Below, piece by piece: positions 1 to 24,996 of a stretch of DNA of 28,745 bases. Under the pieces are notes generated by a model. The model made no database searches, had not been told where the DNA came from, and saw nothing but the letters and a program-made list of their open reading frames with translations. Every line of letters begins with the position of its first letter. Within the stretch, counting starts at the first letter, position 1. Position numbers and translations under genes: made by a program. This DNA comes from a virus: the UHGV virus genome UHGV-0139114. One strand, written 5' to 3'.

Positions 1-981
1 TTATAACGTCACTCCGCCTTTTAGTGGATTCAGAGCGACGGCATTTTGCAGATAGTCAGGCGCAAGGTGCGCATAGGCCATCGTCTGCTGAATGCTCGCA
101 TGTCCCAGAATCTGTTGCAGTGCGATTATATTGCCCCCATTCATCATGAAATGGCTTGCGAATGTATGCCGCAGGATGTGGGTTGCCTGATTGGGTGGTA
201 TATCAGGTTTCACTCTGCGTAAAATCCCGCAAAATTTCTCATAATCAACTTTGAATAATTTGGCGCTGGCCTCCTCTTTAACTTTTTTCTCCAGTTCCTC
301 AGAAATCGGCACGGTTCGCTTTTTACCGTTTTTGGTTTTCAGGAAGGTAACCCTGCAATTTGTAATCTGTGCTGGTTTTAGCGTGGCAACTTCCGTCCAT
401 CTTCCTCCAGTGCTCAGACATAAAAGCGCGACAAGTAAGTCATCACCAGCCAAAACATTTAACAGTTTTTCGATTTCTGCTTTTTCCAGGAACGTCATTT
501 CAGGGTTGGCCTCCGCCAGTGGCGGCAGTCCGTGAATTGGGTGTTGCCCGGAAAATTCATCCAATTGAATTAATTTTGTGAACATGCCGGATAATCGGTA
601 CATGTCACGGTTTATCGTTGCGGCACTGATACCATCACGTAGTCGCATGGAACGATAATCCATCAAAGCCCTTTTGCTCATCCTGCTCACTGGTATATCA
701 CCTATGCCGCTGATGGTTTTGAGTAGATGATTAAACTCTTTTGTTCCATGCTCGTGGTTTTGCCCGTGATATTTCCACCAGATGTCCAGCAACTCACTCA
801 AAGTCCGGCGGTCTGCTCGCTGGCCTCCCCATTCTTTCTGACTGGCATTGGCGATCGTGTATCGCTCAAATGCTAGTGCTTCAGCTTTTCTTTCGAATTT
901 CCTGCGGATGCGTTTTCCGTCGCGACCGCGAGGTCTAATGTCCACTTCATAGCGACCATCATCGAGCTTCTTAATTGCCAT
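1..981 (-). CDS. int: Tyrosine integrase, P2 Int-like. Start placed at the ATG at 981 (GGAGGG 7 nt upstream); the track's ATG at 1011 has no SD and is the alternative.
   Basis: Translation begins MAIKKLDDGRYEVDIRP, which I recall as the P2 Int N-terminus; C-terminal region HTFASHF...LGH...Y is typical of tyrosine recombinases. Stop codon is at positions 1-3, so the attachment junction lies outside the window. Confidence 0.85.
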   Translation of the reverse strand: MAIKKLDDGRYEVDIRPRGRDGKRIRRKFERKAEALAFERYTIANASQKEWGGQRADRRTLSELLDIWWKYHGQNHEHGTKEFNHLLKTISGIGDIPVSRMSKRALMDYRSMRLRDGISAATINRDMYRLSGMFTKLIQLDEFSGQHPIHGLPPLAEANPEMTFLEKAEIEKLLNVLAGDDLLVALLCLSTGGRWTEVATLKPAQITNCRVTFLKTKNGKKRTVPISEELEKKVKEEASAKLFKVDYEKFCGILRRVKPDIPPNQATHILRHTFASHFMMNGGNIIALQQILGHASIQQTMAYAHLAPDYLQNAVALNPLKGGVTL

Positions 982-1050
982 AAGAAAGCCCTCCGGCGCT
1001 GTATTCACCATCTTGGTAGCAAATGGTGAAAATGTAATCTTTATATAGAG

Positions 1051-1344
1051 TTAGCCAATCCTTTTCGCGGAGTGGTTGGACTCTGTTGACTCTGGCCCAA
1101 TGTGCGCGAGAGCCGGTGCGATTTGTCCTGCGTCCGGCGCGGTTTTATCTGTCATAAGCCATAGAGCATATTTTTGGAATGTGGGATGCATAGTGATTTT
1201 TAGCAAAGCTGTGCCACCGGGTTCAAAGTTTCCTCCTTCATATTTTTTAAGTGTGCTTAGCGGTAACTCTATGATTTCACAGAATTTTGATTGGCTTAGC
1301 CCTTCAGCCTCACGCAAGGCCTTAATCTTTTCGCTTAATTTCAT
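1051..1344 (-). CDS. C: Immunity repressor, P2 C-like (97 aa)
   Basis: N-terminal HTH-like segment and the segment QIAPALAHIG match my recollection of P2 repressor C; divergent from cox and upstream of int as in P2. Confidence 0.8.
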   Translation of the reverse strand: MKLSEKIKALREAEGLSQSKFCEIIELPLSTLKKYEGGNFEPGGTALLKITMHPTFQKYALWLMTDKTAPDAGQIAPALAHIGPESTESNHSAKRIG

Positions 1345-1465
1345 TTGACATGGTGCCTATATAGGGACTAAATTCCCTCAAAACTGGAACCTATATAGGT
1401 TCCATTGATTTGAGAATAAACCAGCGTCTAAACGGTTTTGAGTGGTTTAGAAAGGGCTGGATCCT
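1345..1465. promoter_or_regulatory. Immunity switch region between C and cox, with TTGACA (1345-1350) and two copies of the palindrome CCTATATAGG (1356-1365 and 1390-1399; the second extends to an 18-bp perfect palindrome GGAACCTATATAGGTTCC, 1386-1403)
   Basis: Seen directly in the sequence. Position corresponds to the Pe/Pc promoter-operator region of P2-like phages; each palindrome has a TATATA core that could serve as a -10 on either strand. Confidence 0.5.
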
Positions 1466-1753
1466 ATGAGGGTACCATATATGGACTCTGAAAATTATGT
1501 GATTCAGTATCCGCTTGATGCGGTTCATGTGGATAAATTTGCTGATTTATTAGGGAAGCCAAAGACAGCCGTCAGTGAAATGGTGAAGGCAAATAAATTA
1601 CCAATTATTGAATTGCGTGATCCTTGCAAACCGAAGGCTCGTGCCGGTGAAAAATGGGTTTTCATTCCTGAGTTTAATCGCGCTGTACGTGAGGCGTTTT
1701 ATAACCGACCGGTTGAACAGCGTGATGCATGGCTTTTGTGGATGGGGTTGTGA
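1466..1753 (+). CDS. cox: Cox-like excisionase / early transcriptional regulator (alternative start at ATG 1481)
   Basis: About 90-95 aa, first rightward gene after the repressor; C-terminal WLLWMGL resembles P2 Cox. Both candidate starts have an SD. Confidence 0.75.
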   Translation: MRVPYMDSENYVIQYPLDAVHVDKFADLLGKPKTAVSEMVKANKLPIIELRDPCKPKARAGEKWVFIPEFNRAVREAFYNRPVEQRDAWLLWMGL

Positions 1754-1755
1754 TT

Positions 1756-1926
1756 ATGAATGAGCCGCGTTGTATTGCTCAGTTATTGCGTAACGAAAGC
1801 CCCAGGGCGATTGACTTCACCATCACCCACGGTAAGGGGCGTAAGGGAATCATTATCCGCACCAAAAAACAGAGTCCGTTAAAAAAGGCTCTGACCTTTC
1901 TGAAAAGCCGGAGGGTATGGAAATGA
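1756..1926 (+). CDS. Small hypothetical protein (56 aa from ATG 1756)
   Basis: ORF in the early operon between cox and B; ATG 3 nt after the cox stop. No family recognised. Confidence 0.4.
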   Translation: MNEPRCIAQLLRNESPRAIDFTITHGKGRKGIIIRTKKQSPLKKALTFLKSRRVWK

Positions 1927-2423
1927 CAGTGATGACGCTCAATCTCGTTGAAAAACAGCCAGCAACTATGCGCCGGATAATTGGTAAGCATCTGGCCGTC
2001 CCTCGCTGGCAGGAGACATGCGATTATTATAATCAGATGATGGAACGCGAACGGCTAACGGTTTGCTTTCATGCGCAGTTAAAACAGCGTCACGCAACGA
2101 TGCGTTTTGAAGAAATGAACGACGTCGAACGTGAACGGCTGGTTTGTGCAATTGATGAATTGCGTGGGGCATTCTCAAAACGCCGTCAGGTTGGCGCAAG
2201 TGAGTATGCATATATTAGTTTTTTAACAGTCAGTCAGCGCCGTACTTTATTTATGCATGCCGGATTGACTGAAAAAGAATTCAACCAGCCATACTGGCGA
2301 ATTAATGAAGAGTCATGTTACTGGCGTGATGCTTTATTCCGTGCGTTACGTGAATTATTCAGTCTGTTTGAGTATGCGCCGACAATTCTGACGTCGGTAA
2401 AACCAGAGCAATATCTGCATTAA
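1923..2423 (+). CDS. B: Replication protein B-like (166 aa from ATG 1923; track start is 1917)
   Basis: Position between cox and A and length equal to P2 gpB as I recall it; GGAGG at 1909-1913 is optimally spaced for the 1923 ATG. Confidence 0.65.
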   Translation: MTVMTLNLVEKQPATMRRIIGKHLAVPRWQETCDYYNQMMERERLTVCFHAQLKQRHATMRFEEMNDVERERLVCAIDELRGAFSKRRQVGASEYAYISFLTVSQRRTLFMHAGLTEKEFNQPYWRINEESCYWRDALFRALRELFSLFEYAPTILTSVKPEQYLH

Positions 2424-2486
2424 GTAATTAACCAGAGTTTTTAACGCACTTAATCGTGCGGGGCTTCTTTTTGCCTGGAGAAAGTC

Positions 2487-2711
2487 ATGCATACAGTTTC
2501 TGAAAATCAGTGCGGTAAATACGCATTACTGCTGCAACAGGCCAGAACCGAAGCACAGGCCGACGCAGCGACGCGCTTTTCTTCTCATCTTGACGCCATG
2601 ATTCGCCATATCACAAAGGCGGAGTTATCCCGCGTGGAGATAGTCGAGCTGCTCAGTCAGGAGTCGGAAAAATTTCACAATATCGGATTGTCTCGCGGGG
2701 AGGTGCTTTGA
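2487..2711 (+). CDS. Hypothetical early protein (74 aa)
   Basis: ORF with GGAG 6 nt upstream of the ATG; stop overlaps the next start (TGATG). Confidence 0.55.
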
Positions 2712-3013
2712 TGTCCTGTTCTCATTCAGTTGTATTACTGAATAACGCCTTAAAAATCGCTGTTATGAAAAATGGCGATTTGTCTCTTATTCAACTTGGT
2801 CTTGATAAAGAAAAACGCGAAATAACTGAATCTGTTATCGCGATTTATCAGAACGAATTAAACCTCCTGTCTGATGTGGTCAATTTACTTGTTAAACGCG
2901 CTGTATTCCACAAGCAAATTTCCTCAGTGGATGAACTGACAAAATTAACGACAGAAATCGCCAGCTATTGCGCTGATGAATTTAAGAAACTGAACGACAA
3001 AAGGAGCTGGTAA
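2711..3013 (+). CDS. Hypothetical early protein (100 aa from ATG 2711)
   Basis: Track start at 2708 is TTG; ATG at 2711 has GGAGG 9 nt upstream and overlaps the upstream stop. Confidence 0.55.
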   Translation: MSCSHSVVLLNNALKIAVMKNGDLSLIQLGLDKEKREITESVIAIYQNELNLLSDVVNLLVKRAVFHKQISSVDELTKLTTEIASYCADEFKKLNDKRSW

Positions 3014-3237
3014 TGCCGGACAACGTGGATTTTATTCAGGAACAACAGGCTGAATTACTGGAGCGTCAGATTAACGCGGCAAGGGTAAAACATTGCGGTG
3101 CTTCTGCGCTGGTTTGCGAAGAGTGTGACGCGCCAATACCTGCTGCCCGTCGTGCGGCTTATCCGTCAGCCACGCGTTGTGTTTCCTGCCAGTCAGTCTT
3201 TGAAGCAAAAAACAAACATTACCGGAGAACGGCATGA
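3013..3237 (+). CDS. Small C4 zinc-finger protein, TraR/DksA-like
   Basis: Cys pairs CEECDAP ... CVSCQ in a 74-aa protein; AAGGAG 6 nt upstream. Matches the position of the small zinc-finger orf found before gene A in P2-like phages. Confidence 0.65.
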   Translation: MPDNVDFIQEQQAELLERQINAARVKHCGASALVCEECDAPIPAARRAAYPSATRCVSCQSVFEAKNKHYRRTA

Positions 3238-3509: not shown

Positions 3510-5805
3510 AGCCTCCGGGCGTTTTGTCCCTCCGTCAGCATTTGCTGCAGGCACCGGTAAGGCGTTTACCGGTGCTTATGCATGGAACGCGCCACGCGAG
3601 GCTGTCGGGCGCGAAAGACCCCTTACACGTGACGAGATGCGTCAGGTGCAAGGTGTTTTATCCACGATTAACCGCCTGCCTTACTTTTTGCGCTCGCTGT
3701 TTACTTCACGCTATGACTACATCCGGCGCAATAAAAGCCCGGTGCACGGGTTTTATTTCCTCACATCCACTTTTCAGCGTCGTTTATGGCCGCGCATTGA
3801 GCGTGTGAATCAGCGTCATGAAATGAACGCCGACGCGTCGTTGCTGTTTCTGGCAGAGCGCGACCAGTATGCGCGCCTGCCGGGGATGAATGACAAGGAG
3901 CTGAAAAAGTTTGCCGCCCGTATCTCATCACAGCTTTTCATGATGTATGAGGAACTCTGCGATGCCTGGGTGGATGCGCATGGCGAGAAAGAATCGCTGT
4001 TTACGGATGAGGCGCAGGCTCACCTCTATGGTCATGTTGCTGGCGCTGCACGTGCTTTCAATATTTCCCCGCTCTACTGGAAAAAATACCGTAAAGGACA
4101 GATGACCACGAGGCAGGCATATTCTGCCATTGCCCGTCTGTTTAACGATGAGTGGTGGACTCATCAGCTTAAAGGCCAGCGTATGCGCTGGCATGAGGCG
4201 TTACTGATTGCTGTCGGGGAGGTGAATAAAGACCGTTCTCCTTATGCCAGTAAACATGCCATTCGTGATGTGCGTGCACGCCGCCAGGCAAATCTGGAAT
4301 TTCTTAAATCGTGTGACCTTGAAAACAGGGAAACCGGCGAGCGCATCGACCTTATCAGTAAGGTGATGGGCAGTATTTCTAATCCTGAAATTCGCCGGAT
4401 GGAGCTGATGAACACCATTGCCGGTATTGAGCGTTACGCCGCCGCAGAGGGGGATGTGGGGATGTTTATCACGCTGACCACGCCGTCAAAGTATCACCCG
4501 ACACGTCAGGTCGGAAAAGGCGAAAGTAAAACCGTCCAGCTTAATCACGGCTGGAATGATGAGGCATTTAATCCAAAGGATGCGCAGCGTTATCTCTGCC
4601 GTATCTGGAGCCTGATGCGCACGGCATTCAAGGATAATGATTTACAGGTCTACGGTTTGCGTGTCGTCGAGCCACACCACGACGGAACGCCGCACTGGCA
4701 TATGATGCTTTTTTGTAATCCACGCCAGCGTAACCAGATTATCGAAATCATGCGTCGCTATGCGCTCAAAGAGGATGGTGACGAAAGAGGAGCCGCGCGA
4801 AACCGTTTTCAGGCAAAGCACCTTAACCGGGGCGGTGCTGCGGGATATATCGCGAAATACATTTCAAAAAATATCGACGGCTATGCACTGGATGGTCAGC
4901 TCGATAACGATACCGGTAAGCCGCTTAAAGATACTGCCGCGGCTGTTACCGCATGGGCGTCAACGTGGCGCATCCCGCAATTTAAAACGGTTGGCCTGCC
5001 GACAATGGGGGCTTACCGTGAACTACGCAAATTGCCTCGCGGCGTCAGTATTGCTGATGAGTTTGACGAACGCGTCGAGGCTGCTCGCGCTGCCGCAGAC
5101 AGTGGTGATTTTGCGTTGTATATCAGCGCGCAGGGTGGGGCAAATGTCCCGCGCGATTGTCAGACTGTCAGGGTTGCCCGTAGCCCGTCGGATGACGTCA
5201 ACGAGTACGAGGAAGAAGTCGAGAGAGTGGTCGGCATTTACGCGCCGCATCTCGGCGCGCGTCATATTCATATCACCAGAACCACGGACTGGCGCATTGT
5301 TCCGAAATTTCCGGTCGTTGAGCCTTTGACTTTAAAAAGCGGCATCGCCGCGCCTCGGAGTCCTGTCAATAACTGTGGAAAGCTCACCGGTGGTGATACT
5401 TCGTTACCGGCTCCCACACCTTCTGAGCACGCCGCAGCCCTGCTTAATCTGGTTGATGACGGTGTTATCGAATGGAATGACCCGGAGGTCGTGAGGGCGC
5501 TCAGGGGCGCATTAAAACACGGCCTGAGAACACCAAACCGTCAGCAAAGAAACGGAAGCCCGTTAAAAGCGCATGAAATAGCGCCATCGGCCAGGCTGAC
5601 CCGGTTGGAGCGTATGCAAATTACCCGTATCCGTGTTGACCTTGCTCAGAACGGCATCTGGCCTCAGCGATGGGAACTTGAGGCGCTGGCGCGTGGCGCG
5701 ACCGTAAATTATGACGGGAAAAAATTCACGTATCCGGTCACTGATGAGTGGCCGGGATTCTCAACAGTAATGGAGTGGACATCATGGCAAAAATTCACGA
5801 GGTAA
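3499..5805 (+). CDS. A: Rolling-circle replication initiator endonuclease, P2 gpA-like (start at ATG 3499; track start 3457 is TTG)
   Basis: From the 3499 ATG the protein begins MAVKASGRFVPPSAF, which I recall as the P2 gpA N-terminus; contains HWHMMLF and YIAKYISKNIDGY, typical of rolling-circle initiators with the active-site tyrosines. Confidence 0.9.
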   Translation: MAVKASGRFVPPSAFAAGTGKAFTGAYAWNAPREAVGRERPLTRDEMRQVQGVLSTINRLPYFLRSLFTSRYDYIRRNKSPVHGFYFLTSTFQRRLWPRIERVNQRHEMNADASLLFLAERDQYARLPGMNDKELKKFAARISSQLFMMYEELCDAWVDAHGEKESLFTDEAQAHLYGHVAGAARAFNISPLYWKKYRKGQMTTRQAYSAIARLFNDEWWTHQLKGQRMRWHEALLIAVGEVNKDRSPYASKHAIRDVRARRQANLEFLKSCDLENRETGERIDLISKVMGSISNPEIRRMELMNTIAGIERYAAAEGDVGMFITLTTPSKYHPTRQVGKGESKTVQLNHGWNDEAFNPKDAQRYLCRIWSLMRTAFKDNDLQVYGLRVVEPHHDGTPHWHMMLFCNPRQRNQIIEIMRRYALKEDGDERGAARNRFQAKHLNRGGAAGYIAKYISKNIDGYALDGQLDNDTGKPLKDTAAAVTAWASTWRIPQFKTVGLPTMGAYRELRKLPRGVSIADEFDERVEAARAAADSGDFALYISAQGGANVPRDCQTVRVARSPSDDVNEYEEEVERVVGIYAPHLGARHIHITRTTDWRIVPKFPVVEPLTLKSGIAAPRSPVNNCGKLTGGDTSLPAPTPSEHAAALLNLVDDGVIEWNDPEVVRALRGALKHGLRTPNRQQRNGSPLKAHEIAPSARLTRLERMQITRIRVDLAQNGIWPQRWELEALARGATVNYDGKKFTYPVTDEWPGFSTVMEWTSWQKFTR

Positions 5806-6236
5806 AGCTGCACGCAAAATATTTCGACCTTGTGCTGGAAGGAAAGAAACGTGCAGAGTTTCGGAAAAATGACCGTAATTATGAGCGCGGGGACACGCTG
5901 ATTTTGCATGAATGGGTGCAGGGTGTGTTTACGGGGCGAAAGGTTGAAGCCCGGATAACAGATGTTACTGACCTGTCAGACTGGCTGGAAGATTATGTCT
6001 TGCTAAGTATTGAGCTGCTTAATACAAGCGCATATGAGATTGTGAACTGGAAAGAACTTAGTGAGCGTGGTCTGGTATTCAGAATTAATCATGAAATTAT
6101 GCATCAGCTCGGCCTTGCTGTTATGTATGAACCAGAGACGGGGATGTCTGGCGGGGCAATGGTTACCACGGATGGAGCATGGAACTATTCAGATGAACAG
6201 ATTGAGAGTGCAAAGCAAAACGGGTGGCTTGGATAA
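5784..6236 (+). CDS. DUF3850-like (ASCH/PUA-like fold) protein with a C-terminal extension (150 aa from ATG 5784)
   Basis: N-terminal 60 aa (KIHEVKLHAKYFDLVLEGKKRAEFRKNDRNYERGDTL) look like DUF3850 from memory; track start 5748 is GTG, and ATG 5784 has GGAG 9 nt upstream. Confidence 0.55.
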   Translation: MAKIHEVKLHAKYFDLVLEGKKRAEFRKNDRNYERGDTLILHEWVQGVFTGRKVEARITDVTDLSDWLEDYVLLSIELLNTSAYEIVNWKELSERGLVFRINHEIMHQLGLAVMYEPETGMSGGAMVTTDGAWNYSDEQIESAKQNGWLG

Positions 6237-6442
6237 TGCACGGAATACCAGGCGAGATACCGCAACATAACACTAAAAATATCAAGCTGATGGCTATTGT
6301 TCACCGTCTACAGCAGATTATGGTCAACGAAAATCTGACGCCTGACGAGCTGGTCGGGTGTGCTGAAATAGTCCGGGATAATTACGGGCGGTTTAACTAT
6401 ATCGGTCAGTCCAGAGTTGCGCCACCACCACGCAGACGATAG
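6236..6442 (+). CDS. Small hypothetical protein (68 aa), start overlapping the DUF3850 stop (TAATG)
   Basis: ATG 6236 shares one base with the upstream stop TAA at 6234-6236; no family recognised. Confidence 0.4.
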   Translation: MHGIPGEIPQHNTKNIKLMAIVHRLQQIMVNENLTPDELVGCAEIVRDNYGRFNYIGQSRVAPPPRRR

Positions 6443-6515
6443 AGAACGCCGCCAGTCGTGAAACTTGTTTTCAGGGCTGGCGGGGTTGAACAACGAGCGA
6501 AGTGAGGCGTTAGCA

Positions 6516-7457
6516 TTAAGTTAATTTTAATGAATGGTACTCTATCGAGCTGATTGTAGATGCGATATATTTACGATCATTTACAGAGAGTATTGCCGCT
6601 AGTAGACGACATACCAGAGCCTGCATTTGTAGCAATATATCGCTACCATATTGACAATCATTGATACTAGAGAAACCAAGCGGTTGCCCATTAAAAATGG
6701 CTTCATGAAAATTATCATTGCGTATAACTGAAACATTACATTCATCTGTTGCCCATGACGGGATTTTTACACCGTAATTTTCGCACATCCAATATACTCT
6801 ATTTTGATGAGATGGTTTTTTCTCTTTAATGACTTTATCCCTTTCATCCCATGCTATAGCAAAACAGCAATCAAGAGCCATATAAAGATACTGGAATTTC
6901 TCAAAGGAAAGGTATAGTGGGTTATGTGATAGGAATAGGGAGTGTATCACCGCAGCTATTCTTTTAATGGAGCGATCATCTTTTTGTTTGTCTTTTATAT
7001 AGTTAAGTGCTAGCTCTATTACTTCTTTTTCAGAGCATCCAACGAGAATAAAGTCAGTTAACTTAGTGGGCTTGATAGTGGTTGCATCAAGAAAACCAGC
7101 GTCAGTGGTTGTCAATCTTATACCCTTGAAAAAAGAGAGGCACCACACAACAAAGTTGAGAGTTTCTAACGAGGATGTGTTTTTTAATTTTAGTGTGTGC
7201 GTTTTGGGCATGCCGAATACTCGGTAACTATAAGGCATTGTGCATGTGTCACCATTAAGGTTATATACCTTTCGATTCCCAGGGTATATCCAACCATTAA
7301 CAACGTTTTTATCATTGTTAATACGTTCCACTTTCTCAATAAGACCGGGTAAAGTACGCAAAGAAAATTGTTCAGTCTCAATGTTAACTTCTACTGGATA
7401 GTATCCAAACTCCGAAATAATCTCATTTGGTTGCTGTTCATCAACTTCACCTTGCAT
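6516..7457 (-). CDS. Orphan 313-aa protein with an RNxxxH (HEPN-like) motif; candidate abortive-infection / defence nuclease
   Basis: Long ORF on the opposite strand to the surrounding phage genes in an AT-rich segment; GGAG 7 nt upstream of ATG 7457; motif RNDNFH at residues 246-251 (nt 6705-6722). Not a P2 gene that I recognise. Confidence 0.6.
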   Translation of the reverse strand: MQGEVDEQQPNEIISEFGYYPVEVNIETEQFSLRTLPGLIEKVERINNDKNVVNGWIYPGNRKVYNLNGDTCTMPYSYRVFGMPKTHTLKLKNTSSLETLNFVVWCLSFFKGIRLTTTDAGFLDATTIKPTKLTDFILVGCSEKEVIELALNYIKDKQKDDRSIKRIAAVIHSLFLSHNPLYLSFEKFQYLYMALDCCFAIAWDERDKVIKEKKPSHQNRVYWMCENYGVKIPSWATDECNVSVIRNDNFHEAIFNGQPLGFSSINDCQYGSDILLQMQALVCRLLAAILSVNDRKYIASTISSIEYHSLKLT

Positions 7458-7695
7458 AACTTTCTCCGTTCAAAAACAGGCACGATAATTCTCGTAAGCC
7501 TATCATGTTCGCAAAGTATCCATACCTGTGGATTTTGTAAATTTAAGTTGATTTGTCATTAAATAAGCCGTTGCATGCAACAAGTGAATGTTTTTGCATG
7601 CGTCGGGGATGTCCGTTCAGGCTGCGTGCGGTCAGGACTGGTGCGGATCCATAGTATCTATGCAACTGCATTAAAACCGCCCCATGAAGCGGGCG

Positions 7696-7714
7696 GGCGA
7701 GGCGGGGAAAGCAC
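7696..7714. other. cos: cos site: 19-nt sequence GGCGAGGCGGGGAAAGCAC, the cohesive-end sequence of P2 as I recall it
   Basis: Exact string present about 170 bp from the 3' end of the portal gene, the expected location of P2 cos. Confidence 0.65.
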
Positions 7715-7856
7715 TGCGCGCTGGCGGTGGTGCTGATTTTATTTTTTCAGCGTCTCAGCGCGTCGTGACGGCGCTTAGTCTGCCCGTTGAGGCGCTGGTG
7801 TGTCTGCGGGGTGTTTTGTGCGGTGGTGAGCGTGTGAGGGCGTGATGACGGGGTGT

Positions 7857-7878
7857 AAAAAAGCCGCCCGCAGGCGGC
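7857..7878 (-). terminator. Rho-independent terminator after the P-Q operon
   Basis: GC hairpin GCCGCC / GGCGGC (7863-7868, 7873-7878) with a 4-nt loop; on the minus strand it is followed by T6 (plus-strand A-run 7857-7862), directly downstream of the Q stop at 7884. Confidence 0.7.
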
Positions 7879-7883
7879 GATGT

Positions 7884-8918
7884 TCAGCCGTTGTCAGTGT
7901 CCAGTGAGTAGTTTTTAAAGCGGATGACCTCCTGACCGAGCCAGCCGTTTATCTCGCGGATCCTGTCCTGTAGCGGGATAAGCTCATTGCGGACAAAGAC
8001 CTTTGCCACTTTCTCAATATCACCCAGCGACCCGACGTTCTCCGGCTTGCCACCCATCAACTGAAAGGGGATGCGGTGCGCATCCAGCAGGTCAGCGGCG
8101 CTGGCTTTTTTGATATTAAAAAAATCGTCCTTCGTCGCCACTTCACTGAGCGGGATAATTTTAATGCCGTCGGCTTTCCCCTGCGGGGCATAGAGAAACA
8201 GGTTTTTAAAGTTGTTGCGGCCTTTCGACTTCACCATGTTTTCGCGAAGCATTTCGATATCGTTGCGATCCTGCACGGCATCGGTGACGTACATGATGTA
8301 TCCGGCATGTGCGCCGTTTTCGTAATACTTGCGGCGGAACAGCGTGGCCGACTCATTCAGCCAGGCAGAGTTAAGGGCGCTGAGATATTCCGGCAGACCG
8401 TACAGCTCCTGATTAATATCCGGCTCCAGCAGGTGAAACACGGAGTCGGGCGCGAAGGCTGTCGGCTCGTTGAAGGAGGGCACCCACCAGTAAACATCCT
8501 CCTCCACGCCACGGCGGGTATATTTTGCCGGTGAGGTTTCCAGTCTGATGACCTTACCGGTGGTGCTGTAACGCTTTTCCAGAAACGCATTACCGAACAC
8601 CAGAAAATCCAGCACAAAGCGGCTGAAATCCTGCTGGGAAAGCCACGGATGCGGGATAAATGTCGAGGCCAGAATATTGCGTTTAACGTAAATCGGTGAG
8701 CTGTGATGCACGGCAGCACGCAGGCTTTTTGCCAGACCGGTAAAGCTGACCGGTGGCTCATACCATCTGCCGTTACTGATGCACTCGACGTAATCCAGAA
8801 TGTCACGGCGGTCGAGTACCGGCACCGGCTCACCAAAGGTGAATGCCTCCATTTTCGGGGCGCTGGCGGTGATTGTTTTTGCCGCAGGTTGCGGCGTTTT
8901 CCCTTTTTTCTTGCTCAT
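7884..8918 (-). CDS. Q: Portal protein, P2 gpQ-like (344 aa)
   Basis: Length and position next to the terminase gene; start ATG overlaps the terminase stop by one base. Confidence 0.9.
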   Translation of the reverse strand: MSKKKGKTPQPAAKTITASAPKMEAFTFGEPVPVLDRRDILDYVECISNGRWYEPPVSFTGLAKSLRAAVHHSSPIYVKRNILASTFIPHPWLSQQDFSRFVLDFLVFGNAFLEKRYSTTGKVIRLETSPAKYTRRGVEEDVYWWVPSFNEPTAFAPDSVFHLLEPDINQELYGLPEYLSALNSAWLNESATLFRRKYYENGAHAGYIMYVTDAVQDRNDIEMLRENMVKSKGRNNFKNLFLYAPQGKADGIKIIPLSEVATKDDFFNIKKASAADLLDAHRIPFQLMGGKPENVGSLGDIEKVAKVFVRNELIPLQDRIREINGWLGQEVIRFKNYSLDTDNG

Positions 8919-10690
8919 CAGTAAAACTCCAGAATGGTGGATGTCAGCGGGGTGCTGATACCGGCGGTGAGTGGCTCATTTAACAGGGCGTGCATGGTCG
9001 CCCAGGCGAGGTCGGCGTGGCTGGCTTCCTCGCTGCGGCTGGCCTCATAGGTGGCGCTGCGTCCGCTGCTGGTCATGGTCTTGCGGATAGCCATAAACGA
9101 GCTGGTGATGTCGGTGGCGCTGACGTCATATTCCAGACAGCCACGGCGTATAACGTCTTTTGCCTTGAGCACCATTGCGGTTTTCATTTCCGGCGTGTAG
9201 CGGATATCGCGCGCGGCGGGATAGAACGAGCGCACGAGCTGGAACACGCCGACACCGAGGCCGGTGGCATCAATTCCGATGTATTCGACGTTGTATTTTT
9301 CGGTGAGTTTGCGGATGGATTCAGCCTGGGTGGCAAAGTCCATGCCTTTCCACTGGTGACGCTCAAGTATTCTGAATTTGCCACCGGCCACCACCGGCGG
9401 TGCCAGCACCACGCATCCGGCGCTGTCGCCACGGTGTGACGGGTCGTAACCAATCCATACCGGGCGGGAGCCGAACGGATTGGCGGCAAACGGCGCATAG
9501 TCTTCCCATTCTTCCAGCGTGTCGACCATGCAGCGTTGCAGCTCCTCGAACGGGAACACCGACGCCTTGTCGTCAACAAATTCACACATGAACAGGTTTT
9601 TAAAATCGTCGGCGCTGTTTTCACGTTTGAGCTGCTCAATGTCGAACAGCGTGCAGCCGCCTTTCAGCGCGTCCTCAATGGTGACAATCTGTCGCCACTG
9701 GCCGTCCGCACAGAGAAGCCCACCGGCAAGGGCGTTATGACTGACGTCGATTTCCACGCGTTCGGCGGCGCTGGCGCGTCCCCGGTTGAACAGTTCACCG
9801 GACCAGAACGGGTAGGCGTCGTGCGCCAGCGTGGACGGGGTGGAGAAATAGGTCGAGCGCAGGTGACTCTGTGAGGCCATACCCGATGCCACCTTACGCA
9901 GTACCTGAAAATTCGGGATCCAGAAAATCTCGTCGACGTACAGGTCGCCGTTATGGCTCTGTGCGGTGTTGGAGTTGGTGCCGAGAAAAATCAGTTTTGC
10001 GCCGTTATTGCCCAGGACAATCGGGTCACCGGTCAGGTCAACGTCAACCAGACGGGCAAAGGCGATGATGTATTCGCGGAACACATACGCCTGCGTTTTA
10101 CTGGCCGACAGAAAAATCTGGTTATGGCCGGTTTTCAGGGCGCGCAGCAGCGCCTCGCGGGAAAAATAAAACGTCGCGCCAATCTGGCGGGATTTCAGGA
10201 TATCGCGGATGCGGTGCTCAAGCCCGGCGCGATACCAGTGCAACTGATAGTCGAAAGACTGCTCAAAGAAAATCTGCTCCAGCTTTTCGATGGCTTCGTC
10301 GCTGAAAAAATTCTTTTTCGGTTTGCGCCGCCCGCCTTTGTTGCGGTTAGCGATGTTCGGATTAAGGTCTGCCTCGTTGCCGGTCTGGCTGTAGCGGTTG
10401 ACCCGTGCCAGTCGTTCAATCTGGCGTCCGAGCAGGTCAATTTCCTTGAAGTCACCGCCGGTTTTCTGCGGTTTGATGATGAGCTGGGTCAGCCGCGCTT
10501 CCAGACTCATTTCGACACGGCTGATGGGGGCAACGCTGTCCCAGCCGTCGCGCTGTTTCCAGCTCTGCACCGTCGGGCGTTTCATCTGCAACATGGCGGC
10601 AATCTGCGGCACGGAAAATCCCTGCCAGTACAGCAGCGCCGCCTGACGACGCGGGTCGTGTAAAAGAGTGGTGTCTGTGGTGATGGTCAT
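8918..10690 (-). CDS. P: Terminase large (ATPase) subunit, P2 gpP-like (590 aa from ATG 10690; track start 10720 is TTG)
   Basis: From 10690 the protein begins MTITTDTTLLHDPRRQAALLYWQGF; a 590-aa product matches P2 gpP as I recall it. Confidence 0.9.
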   Translation of the reverse strand: MTITTDTTLLHDPRRQAALLYWQGFSVPQIAAMLQMKRPTVQSWKQRDGWDSVAPISRVEMSLEARLTQLIIKPQKTGGDFKEIDLLGRQIERLARVNRYSQTGNEADLNPNIANRNKGGRRKPKKNFFSDEAIEKLEQIFFEQSFDYQLHWYRAGLEHRIRDILKSRQIGATFYFSREALLRALKTGHNQIFLSASKTQAYVFREYIIAFARLVDVDLTGDPIVLGNNGAKLIFLGTNSNTAQSHNGDLYVDEIFWIPNFQVLRKVASGMASQSHLRSTYFSTPSTLAHDAYPFWSGELFNRGRASAAERVEIDVSHNALAGGLLCADGQWRQIVTIEDALKGGCTLFDIEQLKRENSADDFKNLFMCEFVDDKASVFPFEELQRCMVDTLEEWEDYAPFAANPFGSRPVWIGYDPSHRGDSAGCVVLAPPVVAGGKFRILERHQWKGMDFATQAESIRKLTEKYNVEYIGIDATGLGVGVFQLVRSFYPAARDIRYTPEMKTAMVLKAKDVIRRGCLEYDVSATDITSSFMAIRKTMTSSGRSATYEASRSEEASHADLAWATMHALLNEPLTAGISTPLTSTILEFY

Positions 10691-10863
10691 GAATACCTCG
10701 CCGTGATGAATACACGGCAAGGCTACTGAGTCGCGCCCCGCGATTCGCTAAGGTGCTGTTGTGTCAGTGATAAGCCATCCGGGACTGATGGCGGAGGATG
10801 CGCATCGTCGGGAAACTGATGCCGACATGTGACTCCTCTAATCACTATTCAGGACTCCTGACA

Positions 10864-11718
10864 ATGGCAAAAAAAGTCTCAAAATTCTTTCGTATCGGCG
10901 TTGAGGGTGACACCTGTGACGGGCGTGTCATCAGTGCGCAGGATATTCAGGAAATGGCCGAAACCTTTGACCCGCGAGTCTATGGTTGCCGCATTAACCT
11001 GGAACATCTGCGCGGCATCCTGCCTGACGGCATTTTTAAACGTTATGGCGATGTGGTCGAACTGAAGGCCGAAAAGATTGACGATGATTCGGCGCTGAAA
11101 GGCAAATGGGCGCTGTTTGCGAAAATCACCCCGACCGATGACCTTATCGCGATGAACAAGGCCGCGCAGAAGGTCTACACCTCAATGGAAATTCAGCCGA
11201 ACTTTGCCAACACCGGCAAATGTTATCTGGTGGGGCTGGCCGTCACCGATGACCCGGCAAGCCTCGGCACGGAATACCTGGAATTCTGCCGCACGGCAAA
11301 ACACAACCCCCTGAACCGCTTCAAATTAAGCCCTGAAAACCTGATTTCAGTGGCAACGCCTGTTGAGCTGGAATTTGAAGACCTGCCTGAAACCGTGTTC
11401 ACCGCCCTGACCGAAAAGGTGAAATCCATTTTTGGCCGCAAACAGGCCAGCGATGACGCCCGTCTGAATGACGTGCATGAAGCGGTGACCGCTGTTGCTG
11501 AACATGTGCAGGAAAAACTGAGCGCCACTGAGCAGCGCCTCGCTGAGATGGAAACCGCCTTTTCCGCACTTAAGCAGGAGGTGACTGACAGGGCGGATGA
11601 AACCAGCCAGGCATTCACCCGCCTGAAAAACAGCCTCGACCACACCGAAAGTCTGACCCAGCAGCGCCGCAGCAAGGCCACCGGCGGTGGCGGTGACGCC
11701 CTGATGACGAACTGCTGA
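10864..11718 (+). CDS. O: Capsid scaffolding protein, P2 gpO-like (start at ATG 10864)
   Basis: Begins MAKKVSKFFRIGVEGDTCDGRV; divergent from P with the intergenic late-promoter region between them; AGGA 10 nt upstream. Confidence 0.9.
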   Translation: MAKKVSKFFRIGVEGDTCDGRVISAQDIQEMAETFDPRVYGCRINLEHLRGILPDGIFKRYGDVVELKAEKIDDDSALKGKWALFAKITPTDDLIAMNKAAQKVYTSMEIQPNFANTGKCYLVGLAVTDDPASLGTEYLEFCRTAKHNPLNRFKLSPENLISVATPVELEFEDLPETVFTALTEKVKSIFGRKQASDDARLNDVHEAVTAVAEHVQEKLSATEQRLAEMETAFSALKQEVTDRADETSQAFTRLKNSLDHTESLTQQRRSKATGGGGDALMTNC

Positions 11719-11776
11719 CCGGCGTCAGTCAGTCCGGGAAAACCTTCACGATTAACCCTTAATTTCAGGAAAAACT

Positions 11777-12850
11777 ATGCGCCAGGAAACCCGCTTTAAA
11801 TTTAATGCCTATCTGTCCCGTGTTGCCGAACTGAACGGCATCGACGCCGGTGATGTGTCGAAAAAATTCACCGTTGAACCGTCGGTCACCCAGACCCTGA
11901 TGAACACCATGCAGGAGTCCTCTGACTTTCTGACCCGCATCAACATTGTGCCGGTCAGCGAAATGAAAGGGGAAAAAATTGGTATTGGTGTCACCGGCTC
12001 CATCGCCAGCACCACCGACACCGCCGGTGGCACCGAGCGTCAGCCGAAGGACTTCTCGAAGCTGGCGTCAAACAAGTACGAATGCGACCAGATTAACTTC
12101 GATTTTTATATCCGCTACAAAACGCTGGACCTGTGGGCGCGTTATCAGGATTTCCAGCTCCGTATCCGTAACGCCATTATCAAACGCCAGTCCCTTGATT
12201 TCATCATGGCCGGTTTTAACGGCGTGAAGCGTGCCGAAACCTCTGACCGCAGCAGCAATCCGATGCTGCAGGATGTGGCGGTCGGCTGGCTGCAGAAATA
12301 CCGCAATGAAGCCCCGGCGCGCGTGATGAGCAAGGTCACTGACGAGGAAGGTCACACGACCTCTGAGGTCATCCGCGTGGGTAAGGGCGGTGATTATGCC
12401 AGCCTTGATGCACTGGTGATGGATGCGACCAACAACCTGATTGAGCCGTGGTATCAGGAAGACCCTGACCTTGTGGTGATAGTGGGACGTCAGTTACTGG
12501 CGGACAAGTATTTCCCCATCGTTAACAAGGAGCAGGACAACAGCGAAATGCTGGCCGCTGACGTCATCATCAGCCAGAAACGCATCGGTAACCTGCCAGC
12601 GGTACGCGTCCCGTACTTCCCGGCGGATGCGATGCTCATCACGAAGCTGGAAAACCTGTCCATCTACTACATGGATGACAGCCATCGCCGCGTGATTGAG
12701 GAAAACCCGAAACTCGACCGCGTGGAGAACTACGAGTCAATGAACATTGATTACGTGGTGGAAGACTACGCCGCCGGTTGTCTGGTGGAAAAAATTAAGG
12801 TCGGTGATTTCTCCACACCGGCCAGGGCGACCGCAGAGCCGGGAGCGTAA
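11777..12850 (+). CDS. N: Major capsid protein, P2 gpN-like (357 aa)
   Basis: Begins MRQETRFKFNAYLSRVAELNG; length and position after O. Confidence 0.9.
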   Translation: MRQETRFKFNAYLSRVAELNGIDAGDVSKKFTVEPSVTQTLMNTMQESSDFLTRINIVPVSEMKGEKIGIGVTGSIASTTDTAGGTERQPKDFSKLASNKYECDQINFDFYIRYKTLDLWARYQDFQLRIRNAIIKRQSLDFIMAGFNGVKRAETSDRSSNPMLQDVAVGWLQKYRNEAPARVMSKVTDEEGHTTSEVIRVGKGGDYASLDALVMDATNNLIEPWYQEDPDLVVIVGRQLLADKYFPIVNKEQDNSEMLAADVIISQKRIGNLPAVRVPYFPADAMLITKLENLSIYYMDDSHRRVIEENPKLDRVENYESMNIDYVVEDYAAGCLVEKIKVGDFSTPARATAEPGA

Positions 12851-22829: not shown

Positions 22830-23019
22830 GTGATATGATCTCTTGTGTGAATTAACATAGCTATAGTACAGAGTAAAACCTAATCGGACAGTCCGCTCTG
22901 TGCCATTACCGGACATACTGAGCAGAAGGCTAAAAGAACGCTTTCAGGACATATAGCAAGGGAGCAGGGATGATAGAATTAACCCAGTATATTTAATGTT
23001 TCAATCATGATAGTTCCTG

Positions 23020-23047
23020 AATTAAAGGGGGGTATCCCCCTTTAATT
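23020..23047. terminator. Bidirectional hairpin terminator between convergent G and the 92-aa gene
   Basis: Perfect 12-bp stem AATTAAAGGGGG / CCCCCTTTAATT with loop GTAT; overlaps the stop codon of the minus-strand gene. Confidence 0.55.
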
Positions 23048-23324
23048 ACTTGTACCACTCAGTCTGAATTTGGTTACTAACTTCATCTGGGAGATTGTAC
23101 CAATAAGCTGAGTTATTGGTTGCGTCTACAACAATAAGCTTATCATCACTATCCATAACCGCCCTCACAATTTTGGCTGCATCCTCGGCAGAGTAACTAC
23201 AGTTAACATACCAGTTCGATTCAGTTGTTAAAGCCCAATTTCCTAAAGATTTAATCGCATTATACACAGCCGCATAATCTTTCGTTTTAATGAGGTCGTA
23301 AGTAATAAATAAATTATTGGCCAT
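23046..23324 (-). CDS. Hypothetical 92-aa protein (cargo)
   Basis: ORF with GGGAG 8 nt upstream of the ATG, in an AT-rich island; no family recognised. Confidence 0.55.
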   Translation of the reverse strand: MANNLFITYDLIKTKDYAAVYNAIKSLGNWALTTESNWYVNCSYSAEDAAKIVRAVMDSDDKLIVVDATNNSAYWYNLPDEVSNQIQTEWYK

Positions 23325-23343
23325 AAATCATCTCCCAAAGGGC

Positions 23344-23370
23344 AAAGAAAAAAGCGCCTAGAAAGGCGCT
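23344..23370 (-). terminator. Rho-independent terminator between the DUF3606 gene and the 92-aa gene
   Basis: Stem AGCGCCT / AGGCGCT (23353-23359, 23364-23370), loop AGAA; on the minus strand it is followed by TTTTTTCTTT. Confidence 0.6.
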
Positions 23371-23376
23371 CATATA

Positions 23377-23595
23377 TTAATGGTCTTTAAGCCATGCCTG
23401 TACTTTCTTAGCCGAATGACCTACAGCCTGTACGGCTTGAACAAGTTTGGCCTCGCTAACTCCAAACTTTTCAGCCCAATCACGTCTTTCGTAATCCTGT
23501 TTGATACTTATTAAATCATTGTCAGGGGTACCGATTTTGGTCTTATCATCAGCCATTTTACTGATTCCTCGTGATACAGGCTTATACCTGCCCAT
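23377..23595 (-). CDS. DUF3606-like small protein (alternative start at ATG 23556 giving 59 aa)
   Basis: Pattern DYERRDWAEKFGVSEAKLVQAVQAVGHS resembles DUF3606 family members as I remember them; both candidate starts have an SD. Confidence 0.55.
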   Translation of the reverse strand: MGRYKPVSRGISKMADDKTKIGTPDNDLISIKQDYERRDWAEKFGVSEAKLVQAVQAVGHSAKKVQAWLKDH

Positions 23596-24043
23596 TAGTT
23601 ATATGGCTCCCGTGCCGCTTCGTAAACGTTCAATAATCAAACAATTGACACTGATCATAAAACCAGTTAAAGGATTTGACTCTACCTTGGATATATGATG
23701 CCACCCCCTTTATATTGTTGTCGGTAACTCACAGGCATTGAACTCATGCTGGTGAGTGAAAGGCCACATAAACGCCCAATATTTAAACTGCCCTCAGCAG
23801 CGTTCGCGGAGCAATATACAGGCTTCGTATTCAATCCTTGCCCTACGAGAAACCCTAGCCGCAACCTCGTTTTCAAGTGTCAGTAAGTTCTTTGTCAGAC
23901 CTCATACAGTTTTAAGCTGGGTGAGGTGCATGGGGGAAGTTGAAGCCTTAACTGTTGAGGTAAATCGAACCATAAGTGTGCAATTTTTCAAGCCCGGCGC
24001 TATTTTAGTCTTGAAAACAATTAGTACGCCCCAAGGACAACTC

Positions 24044-24736
24044 ATGATCGAATTTATCGCAGAGCATATAAACACAGTAAGCACACTTATCTCCGCTTTG
24101 GCTGCATTGCTAACAGCAGTTGCTACATTTTTCTTGTGGAGAGTAACAAGGCTATTAGCAGACGAGACAAAAAGGATGGTTGACGCATCAGTTCAACCTC
24201 ACGTCGTTGTGACTCTTGAACCAAATTCTTGGGCTGCTTTTTATTTTGATATCAATATTGCTAATACCGGAAATGCCCCAGCCTATGATATTGAAATCGG
24301 ATTTAATCCCCCACTGGTAAATGCAGAACATAGAAAAAATAAAGGTATACCATTTAGCAAGGTTAGCGTATTGAAAAACGGCCATTCGCTCAACAGCAGT
24401 CTTTGTAAGTATGAACAGATTAAAGATCAAGTTTATACTGTTAGTATTAGTTGGTCTAAACAGCCGGGCTCAACTGAAAGAGAGCGGAATGAGTATTCTT
24501 ATGATATGGCTTCTTTCGAGGGGGTTAGCTACTTAGGTGCAAGGAGTCCAATGACACAGATAGCCGAGCAGGTGAAAAAGATTAGAGAAGACTGGAGGCC
24601 GATTTCCCAGGGAAGCAAAAAAATTAAAACAGACAACTATAATTCAAGTGACAGAGCCGAGGAACAACGAGCACGTGAAGAGTGGTATCAGACCACTGCA
24701 AAGAAATGGGATAAAGAAAAGCAAAAAGATAACTAA
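24044..24736 (+). CDS. Membrane-anchored protein of about 230 aa (cargo); candidate superinfection-exclusion / abortive-infection protein. Alternative start at ATG 23930.
   Basis: AAGGA 6 nt upstream of ATG 24044; predicted single N-terminal transmembrane helix TVSTLISALAALLTAVATFFLW, then a beta-rich domain and a K/E-rich tail; AT-rich; occupies the Z/fun locus. Confidence 0.55.
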   Translation: MIEFIAEHINTVSTLISALAALLTAVATFFLWRVTRLLADETKRMVDASVQPHVVVTLEPNSWAAFYFDINIANTGNAPAYDIEIGFNPPLVNAEHRKNKGIPFSKVSVLKNGHSLNSSLCKYEQIKDQVYTVSISWSKQPGSTERERNEYSYDMASFEGVSYLGARSPMTQIAEQVKKIREDWRPISQGSKKIKTDNYNSSDRAEEQRAREEWYQTTAKKWDKEKQKDN

Positions 24737-24871
24737 TACAATTGACCTGCTCCCCATAAATTAGCATACCACAATCTCAGGTCCGCTCTTCGCTCAAAAC
24801 AGGCTGTCAGATTTGACAGAATTTTGGTTACGTAATTTATCAGTTGGAAAATGAGTGAGTACAAATCAGGA

Positions 24872-24900
24872 CAGGCGGGCGAATAGCCTGCCTTTTCTTT
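24872..24900 (+). terminator. Possible weak terminator after the cargo gene, before the FI promoter region
   Basis: Short stem CAGGC / GCCTG with a 9-nt loop followed by CCTTTTCTTT. Confidence 0.3.
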
Positions 24901-24996
24901 ATCTGTTGTTTCATCCACTGACCAGCCAGGTCAAATAGCGTCTCATGCACTACCCAACAGAAAATAGTTGCACCCATTAACCACGGAGTTAAACGG

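Follow-up and report, generated by a model that had tools for sequence, protein, structure and literature searches.

The window, by which we mean the whole 28,745-nucleotide stretch analysed here (UHGV virus genome UHGV-0139114), is a P2-like prophage, 100% identical to the P2-like prophage of E. coli KC-Dl-1, which extends from an integrase adjoining cpxP to the tail genes. A minus-strand gene for a protein of 313 amino acids lies between gpA, the replication endonuclease gene, after which come a DUF3850/ASCH gene and a small ORF, and the portal gene Q; in the GenBank record of P2-EC67 (AM157369) it appears as 'ORF313', the name used here. The features of this gene and its surroundings are as follows.

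6450-7600: low-GC island (36-40% GC) comprising ORF313 and its upstream region; flanks 48-59% GC
6516-7457, minus strand: ORF313 coding sequence including the stop codon, 313 aa (RefSeq WP_001620979.1, 'hypothetical protein')
6519-7037, minus strand: C-terminal all-helical half, aa 141-313, the predicted HEPN domain
6705-6722, minus strand: codons of R246-N-D-N-F-H251, the putative Rx4H catalytic signature, followed by E252 and a PLGF turn
7038-7457, minus strand: N-terminal alpha/beta half, aa 1-140
7464-7467, minus strand: Shine-Dalgarno sequence GGAG, 6 nt 5' of the ATG (at 7457), read from the sequence
7532-7559, minus strand: sigma-70-like promoter candidate (ATGACA, 16 nt, CAAAAT) between cos and ORF313, a consensus match only
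7696-7714, plus strand: P2 cos 19-mer GGCGAGGCGGGGAAAGCAC; exact match, with 0 matches in 100 shuffles

Translation of 6516-7457 yields the 313-residue minus-strand frame of the preliminary description, with RNDNFH at residues 246-251 (nt 6722-6705, CGCAATGATAATTTTCAT). Its claims of a dedicated Shine-Dalgarno sequence and of an AT-rich composition were likewise borne out: GGAG lies 6 nt ahead of the ATG, a ribosome-binding site is annotated at the equivalent place in the P2-EC67 record, and the gene has a GC content of 36.7% compared with 52.2% for the window. The promoter assignment is weak, as the region holds four promoter-like sites where shuffled sequences give 3.5 +/- 2.0. The gene had also been described as transcribed against its flanking genes, which is correct for the left side, where it converges with gpA, the DUF3850 gene and the small ORF, and incorrect for the right side, where portal gene Q and terminase gene P run in the same direction as ORF313.

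The exact 19-mer at 7696-7714 is the P2 cohesive end. This makes ORF313, whose start faces cos, the final gene on the right-hand side of the packaged genome. Both this slot and this orientation are those of the exclusion gene old on the P2 map. The 19-mer is also present in the cloned P4 sequences of Table S2A of Rousset et al., who described the gpA-gpQ interval of P2 as a hotspot of anti-phage systems (Rousset et al., 2022; PMC9122126), and ORF313 is located inside this hotspot, immediately before cos. It thus resembles old and tin of P2, which also occupy the cos-proximal end of the hotspot, as a presumed phage-excluding prophage gene; however, Old is an ABC-ATPase/TOPRIM nuclease unrelated to ORF313, and the PADLOC Old models do not match the protein. 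Two further features of the interval were noted. After gpA, the gene at 5748-6236 (plus strand) encodes a fusion of DUF3850/ASCH (aa 16-88) and DUF7415 (aa 98-139), corresponding to the DUF3850 protein that the HHpred table of Rousset et al. places in the P2 old-tin locus. The 15-nt unit TCAGGCTGCGTGCGG is present in two tandem copies at 7617-7646, about 50 bp from the cos 19-mer, and may be part of the terminase recognition region.

The sequence RNDNFH matches the RNxxxH form of the Rx4-6H motif. Shuffling of the ORF313 protein produced an RNxxxH by chance in 1.6% of 20,000 cases, and the earlier judgement of the motif as mild but real evidence is a fair one. The looser Rx4-6H pattern arose in 50% of shuffles and carries no weight. 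A second Rx4-6H match of ORF313, R166-H172, was discarded as it is not conserved, R166 being present in only 30% of homologues. Conservation of the motif was assessed in two sets of sequences. Across 49 homologues of 44-79% identity R246, N247, H251 and E252 are invariant (49/49), and since this alignment contains 47 invariant columns the comparison was repeated with 60 representatives of only 23-50% identity. In this distant set H251 is retained in 60/60 sequences, R246 in 59/60 and N247 in 54/60, while position 252 is glutamate or aspartate throughout (60/60); H217 (59/60) and R220 (57/60) are nearly as well kept. Just five columns are invariant at this distance, namely G112, E186, H251, G261 and R284. 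The preliminary description had made conservation of R246 and H251 among homologues a test of its proposal of a HEPN RNase, and the proposal withstood it.

The hallmarks of HEPN domains are the Rx4-6H motif, a polar residue (N, D or H) immediately following the arginine and a conserved acidic residue upstream in helix 2 (Anantharaman et al., 2013; PMC3710099). The first two, the latter in the form of N247, are found across the ORF313 family, and the invariant E186, at the start of the predicted helix 184-205, is by sequence a candidate for the third. These observations bear on the possibility that the helical domain is HEPN-like without being a defence RNase, serving instead as a non-catalytic ligand- or nucleic-acid-binding accessory or as a lysogenic-conversion or regulatory factor in which R, N and H are used for binding or other chemistry. 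Non-catalytic HEPN domains, however, typically lose the Rx4-6H motif (PMC3710099), whereas here the full R-N-x3-H and an upstream acidic residue persist down to 23% identity, and we regard such a role as rather unlikely.

An AlphaFold2 model of ORF313 built with the 49-sequence alignment has a mean pLDDT of 84.4 and a pTM of 0.85 and shows a beta-rich N-terminal half followed by a helical C-terminal half, with helices at residues 143-156, 161-176, 184-205, 217-228, 242-255 and 274-289. The motif is predicted to lie in helix 242-255, after which only one more long helix (274-289) follows, a position consistent with helix 3 of the HEPN core, although the motif helix and its flanks (aa 241-270) form the least confident part of the model (pLDDT 55-68). 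Helix 217-228 is located where HEPN domains often have an insert. A Foldseek comparison of the model with the PDB gave nothing significant, with no match below E 0.3. The top matches of a separate structural comparison were AF0298, three HepT entries, the sacsin HEPN domain, AbiA, 4nqf, YutE, TT1696 and ST0689, further HI0074, TTHA0636, two Csm6 entries and AbiV, and at lower ranks the C-domains of KNTase-type nucleotidyltransferases and HepS. Predicted model and fold search together thus favour the HEPN-like all-alpha fold that had been set as a second test. The domain had been expected at residues 200-313; a helical HEPN-like domain is indeed predicted, and it spans about residues 143-300 instead. 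The N-terminal alpha/beta half has no recognisable structural or sequence relative, and it was not confidently folded when modelled alone.

Profile libraries contribute little to this assignment. Scans of the ORF313 protein with Pfam, PADLOC and NCBIfam gave no matches, as did Pfam scans of the 49 close homologues. Among the 60 distant homologues one matched HEPN_RiboL-PSP (PF18735) at E 0.074, far below the gathering score, and one HEPN_Apea at E 0.15, both sub-threshold. Profiles were also compared by hhalign, with comparator profiles built from annotated families in Table S1B of Rousset et al. The best sequence-profile link is to the RiboL-PSP type (PF18735; PD-T4-2_B; P4-hotspot system #70 of Rousset et al., 2022): against the P4-hotspot family labelled HEPN_RiboL-PSP by these authors, 65 columns aligned with a score of 29.9 and a P of 0.0064, at a probability of only 5.9%. 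The score exceeds those of all 32 controls (2 reversed and 30 column-shuffled profiles; maximum 24.7). The alignment pairs H217 with the invariant H160 of the comparator and R246-N247-H251 with R192-N193-H197, so that an upstream histidine and the RNxxxH are similarly spaced in both families, with the caveat that any two RNxxxH motifs tend to align. In the comparator R192 and N193 are invariant and H197 is found in at least 90% of sequences. Rousset et al. assigned its HEPN label by HHpred, whereas HMMER gave no Pfam HEPN match for the family here; as the comparator itself is undetected by the Pfam HMM, the link is suggestive only. The two proteins also differ in build, the comparator having about 450-470 aa and ORF313 313 aa with an alpha/beta N-terminal half, and the similarity is weak and confined to some 65 residues.

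Membership in the HEPN_Apea family (PF18739) was considered as well and rejected. The hhalign comparison with a 318-aa Apea-annotated family gave a P of 0.43, P values of 0.13-0.51 were obtained with single Apea sequences and with an Apea-like profile of 49 sequences, and the PADLOC ApeA and Pfam HEPN_Apea models do not match ORF313; the one pointer in this direction is a homologue that was named HEPN_Apea automatically by UniProt. The motif and the predicted fold in combination suggest that the ORF313 family belongs to the HEPN proteins.

The protein had been called an orphan, a description that does not hold. A word-indexed search returned 260 homologues, and an exhaustive profile search extended the family to at least 657 clusters (50% identity), of which 195 have E <= 1e-30; full-length proteins of about 300 aa make up nearly all of these relatives. 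PHROG 5937 ('unknown function') is matched by ORF313 from end to end (E 8.5e-200). The identical protein is present on 565 contigs, and among complete E. coli genomes 93 of 5,426 carry the gene. It is carried by isolated P2-like phages, namely Yersinia vB_YpM_46 and VB-YPM-4, Escherichia vB_EcoM-720R8 and vB_EcoM-613R3 and a Salmonella phage, while relatives are found in Gamma-, Beta- and Alphaproteobacteria and in metagenome-assembled genomes of Latescibacterota, Planctomycetota, Acidobacteriota, Longimicrobiales and Thermomicrobiales. Besides prophages the family is found on integrative conjugative elements (ICEs) and plasmids, three of which are conjugative; its distribution is patchy and borne on mobile elements.

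Carriage by functional P2-like phages such as vB_YpM_46 and vB_EcoM-720R8 would also be expected of a counter-defence nuclease with which a P2-like phage degrades cyclic oligonucleotides or defence RNAs of its host, and some HEPN enzymes do deplete cyclic oligoadenylate signals (10.64898/2026.02.22.705581). Most members of the family, however, are chromosomal or borne on ICEs or plasmids across phyla rather than on phages, the gene lies in the old/tin exclusion slot facing away from the lytic operons, and no CARF or other signal-binding domain was recognised in ORF313. We consider a counter-defence role highly improbable.

The surroundings of the gene were analysed both within E. coli and across species. 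In E. coli ORF313 remains cos-proximal while its left-hand neighbours vary between three sets: the DUF3850 gene and the small ORF in the window, DUF2158, ORF226 and the small ORF in GN02270 and P2-EC67, and ImmA/IrrE together with a 199-aa protein in Survcare253. ORFs called in 77 loci from different species were clustered, and no conserved partner gene emerged, the commonest neighbour being present in 12 of the 77 loci, all of which reflect the synteny of one lineage. The recurrent annotated neighbours, which are indicative of mobile elements and defence, are a tyrosine integrase, TrbI, CagX, a resolvase, an HSDR_N/AAA protein and a weakly AbiU2-like HEPN protein. In a P. aeruginosa island a homologue adjoins Gabija GajA/GajB, and in Acinetobacter one adjoins DUF4238, a system validated by Rousset et al. 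(PMC9122126). The context hence agrees with the earlier notion of a standalone, horizontally acquired module, given the hotspot position next to cos, the low-GC island and the absence of a conserved neighbour in the 77 loci. The patchy mobile-element distribution and the defence-gene neighbours fit a defence function and speak against the non-catalytic accessory role considered above.

Several loci show local arrangements of their own. In Aeromonas veronii (loci L009-L012, 4684-6963) an AlkZ-like (PF06224) gene precedes the homologue on the same strand with a gap of 105 bp; since the upstream flank of the pair comes in two different versions, it may move in this genus as a two-gene cassette. 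In Sphingopyxis (L052, L055-L060 and related loci, 6001-11813) the gene immediately after the homologue encodes 375 aa and weakly matches HEPN_AbiU2 (E 9e-5), possibly a pairing of two HEPN proteins, and next comes a gene for an error-prone DnaE2-type polymerase.

The small ORF at 6224-6442 (plus strand, 68-72 aa) converges with ORF313 at a distance of 73 bp from the ORF313 stop codon, and two of the ORF313 arrangements keep it. In some genomes it is annotated as 'meiotically up-regulated 80 protein', which is evidently spurious. In strains 2013C-4830, 2012C-4227, 90-3040 and 2013C-3492 an IS2 element is inserted in it (at about window position 6361) with ORF313 intact, the four prophages being otherwise 99.3% identical. 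The ORF was considered as an antitoxin and rejected, since it occurs in 364 of the 5,426 E. coli genomes, four times as many as the 93 with ORF313, and also accompanies unrelated cargo, for example in E. coli W; for the same reasons it belongs to the phage backbone and is no partner of ORF313. An RNA antitoxin was rejected too, as no direct-repeat families and no credible Rfam match were found near ORF313, where the only tandem repeat is the two-copy 15-nt unit beside cos.

These results bear on a further explanation, in which ORF313 would be a HEPN addiction or stabilisation toxin of a prophage or mobile element, neutralised by a neighbouring small protein, a minimal nucleotidyltransferase or an RNA, and not a dedicated phage sensor. 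The ranking of the HepT toxins of HepT/MntA among the top structural matches, the carriage of the gene on prophages, ICEs and plasmids and the retention of the convergent small ORF in two arrangements are in line with this. Against it stand the genome counts and varied cargo of the small ORF, the lack of any neighbour cluster beyond the 12 syntenic loci, the lack of an MNT-like neighbour in the 77 loci and the window, and the lack of a tandem-repeat RNA array or Rfam family nearby. [quoted passage not shown] AbiF) have a tandem-repeat RNA array beside the toxin, of which there is none at ORF313. An addiction toxin is thus distinctly unlikely.

The family has been listed before. In Table S5B of Rousset et al. 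a 69%-identical homologue is entered without annotation as system #11 of the P2 hotspot, a single-gene system counted 218 times, and none of the systems cloned and tested in that study belongs to the family (Rousset et al., 2022). Table S10 of DefensePredictor, an independent machine-learning study (Science 2026; PMC13092281), contains WP_001161722.1 as 'Predicted novel defense gene' with log-odds of 9.68 at a cut-off of 4, and the representative of its cluster, WP_001620979.1, is exactly the ORF313 protein of the window. The entry reports no homology to known defence proteins (PMC13092281), and the family is absent from the tested or validated systems of DefensePredictor. Log-odds of 9.7 again count against a non-catalytic accessory. 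Our literature search returned no paper giving a domain, function or experiment for the family (Odegrip 2006 and Brenes & Laub 2025 lay outside its coverage). A HEPN nuclease in the P2 hotspot is unsurprising to the specialist, and the family is already flagged as a likely defence gene.

Taken together, we favour the reading, at a probability of roughly 60%, that ORF313 is a standalone, prophage-carried HEPN ribonuclease acting as an anti-phage effector of abortive infection or growth arrest, and its family plausibly represents a novel form within the known class of single-protein HEPN abortive-infection systems, with an unrecognised N-terminal domain. What the analysis shows is an invariant motif, a predicted fold resembling HEPN, a position in a validated defence hotspot and on other mobile elements and the lack of any partner gene; that the protein is catalytic and dimerises, that its N-terminal half regulates it, which RNA it cuts, what triggers it and that infection is aborted are what we infer. 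In the mechanism we propose, the lysogen would express ORF313 from its own promoter next to cos. Residues ~143-300 would constitute the HEPN domain, two copies of which would pair to form a composite, metal-independent RNase site, of the type described for the HEPN superfamily (PMC3710099), made up of R246, N247 and H251 with the help of E186, H217, R220 and R284. The tightly packed N-terminal half, with H87, R114 and D135, would hold the enzyme off until an infection cue is sensed, such that it would stay silent in the lysogen and respond to infection by a heterologous phage. Once activated, it would cut host RNA, most probably the anticodon loops of tRNAs, whereupon translation would stop and the phage could not replicate. 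The tRNA anticodon loops are favoured as target by analogy to ApeA, DARNA and HepS. A lone toxic RNase needs an off-switch, and the model assumes that ORF313 has one.

As the N-terminal half did not fold confidently alone, it probably serves in regulation or sensing as an integral part of the protein. Nowhere is the protein better conserved than in the block at aa 81-135 of this half, which also has the near-invariant residues F17, G18, P21, W56, T86, H87, G112, R114 and D135; the top-residue frequency of the half is 0.46 compared with 0.44 for the nuclease half. Such strong conservation would argue for a conserved ligand rather than a fast-evolving phage protein. We therefore entertain, tentatively and with the odds against it, the more specific idea that this half is an undescribed sensor of an infection-derived small molecule or nucleic-acid by-product that allosterically activates the HEPN RNase, comparable to the deoxydinucleotides in the case of ApeA.

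Among known systems, HepS of the Salmonella Gifsy-1 prophage and Tha of S. aureus prophages are single-protein, prophage-encoded HEPN abortive-infection systems and are among the closest to ORF313. ApeA (Gao et al., 2020; PF18739), which cleaves tRNA anticodons once 5'-phosphorylated deoxydinucleotides activate it, is likewise a single-gene HEPN system; its HEPN domain is diverged, and the non-catalytic N-terminal parts, packed tightly against it, provide a conserved pocket for the ligand (10.64898/2026.01.26.701840). In contrast to ORF313, with its 313 aa and beta-rich N-terminal half, ApeA has about 580 aa, consists of all-helical N-terminal and Mid domains and a split HEPN_ApeA domain and assembles into doughnut-shaped oligomers (10.64898/2026.01.26.701840).

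Should the favoured reading of ORF313 as a HEPN effector be true, it would provide a mechanism for one of the commonest unannotated cargo genes of the E. coli P2 hotspot and for a family of at least 657 clusters in Proteobacteria and other phyla that is missed by PADLOC and Pfam-based annotators, and a compact effector of 313 aa with a new regulatory domain would join the tRNA- and RNA-targeting immune systems. ORF313 would also lend itself well to studying how a single toxic RNase stays silent and which infection cue frees it. If the sensor idea held in addition, the family would comprise a new ligand-gated single-protein immune sensor of many bacterial phyla that is exploited by P2-like phages. 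With regard to annotation, a family overlooked by profile libraries can be recovered from a bare RNxxxH motif if conservation among homologues and a fold search back it.

At 22830-24990, flanked by the genes for tail-fibre assembly and the tail sheath and corresponding to the Z/fun slot of P2, the window contains a second variable locus of P2-like phages. Here an ORF at 23756-24736 (plus strand) encodes 326 aa, called as 268 aa by RefSeq (WP_250145074.1), without a Pfam or PADLOC match, and the opposite strand carries a DUF3606 gene and a small hypothetical one; this locus may hold further accessory or defence cargo.
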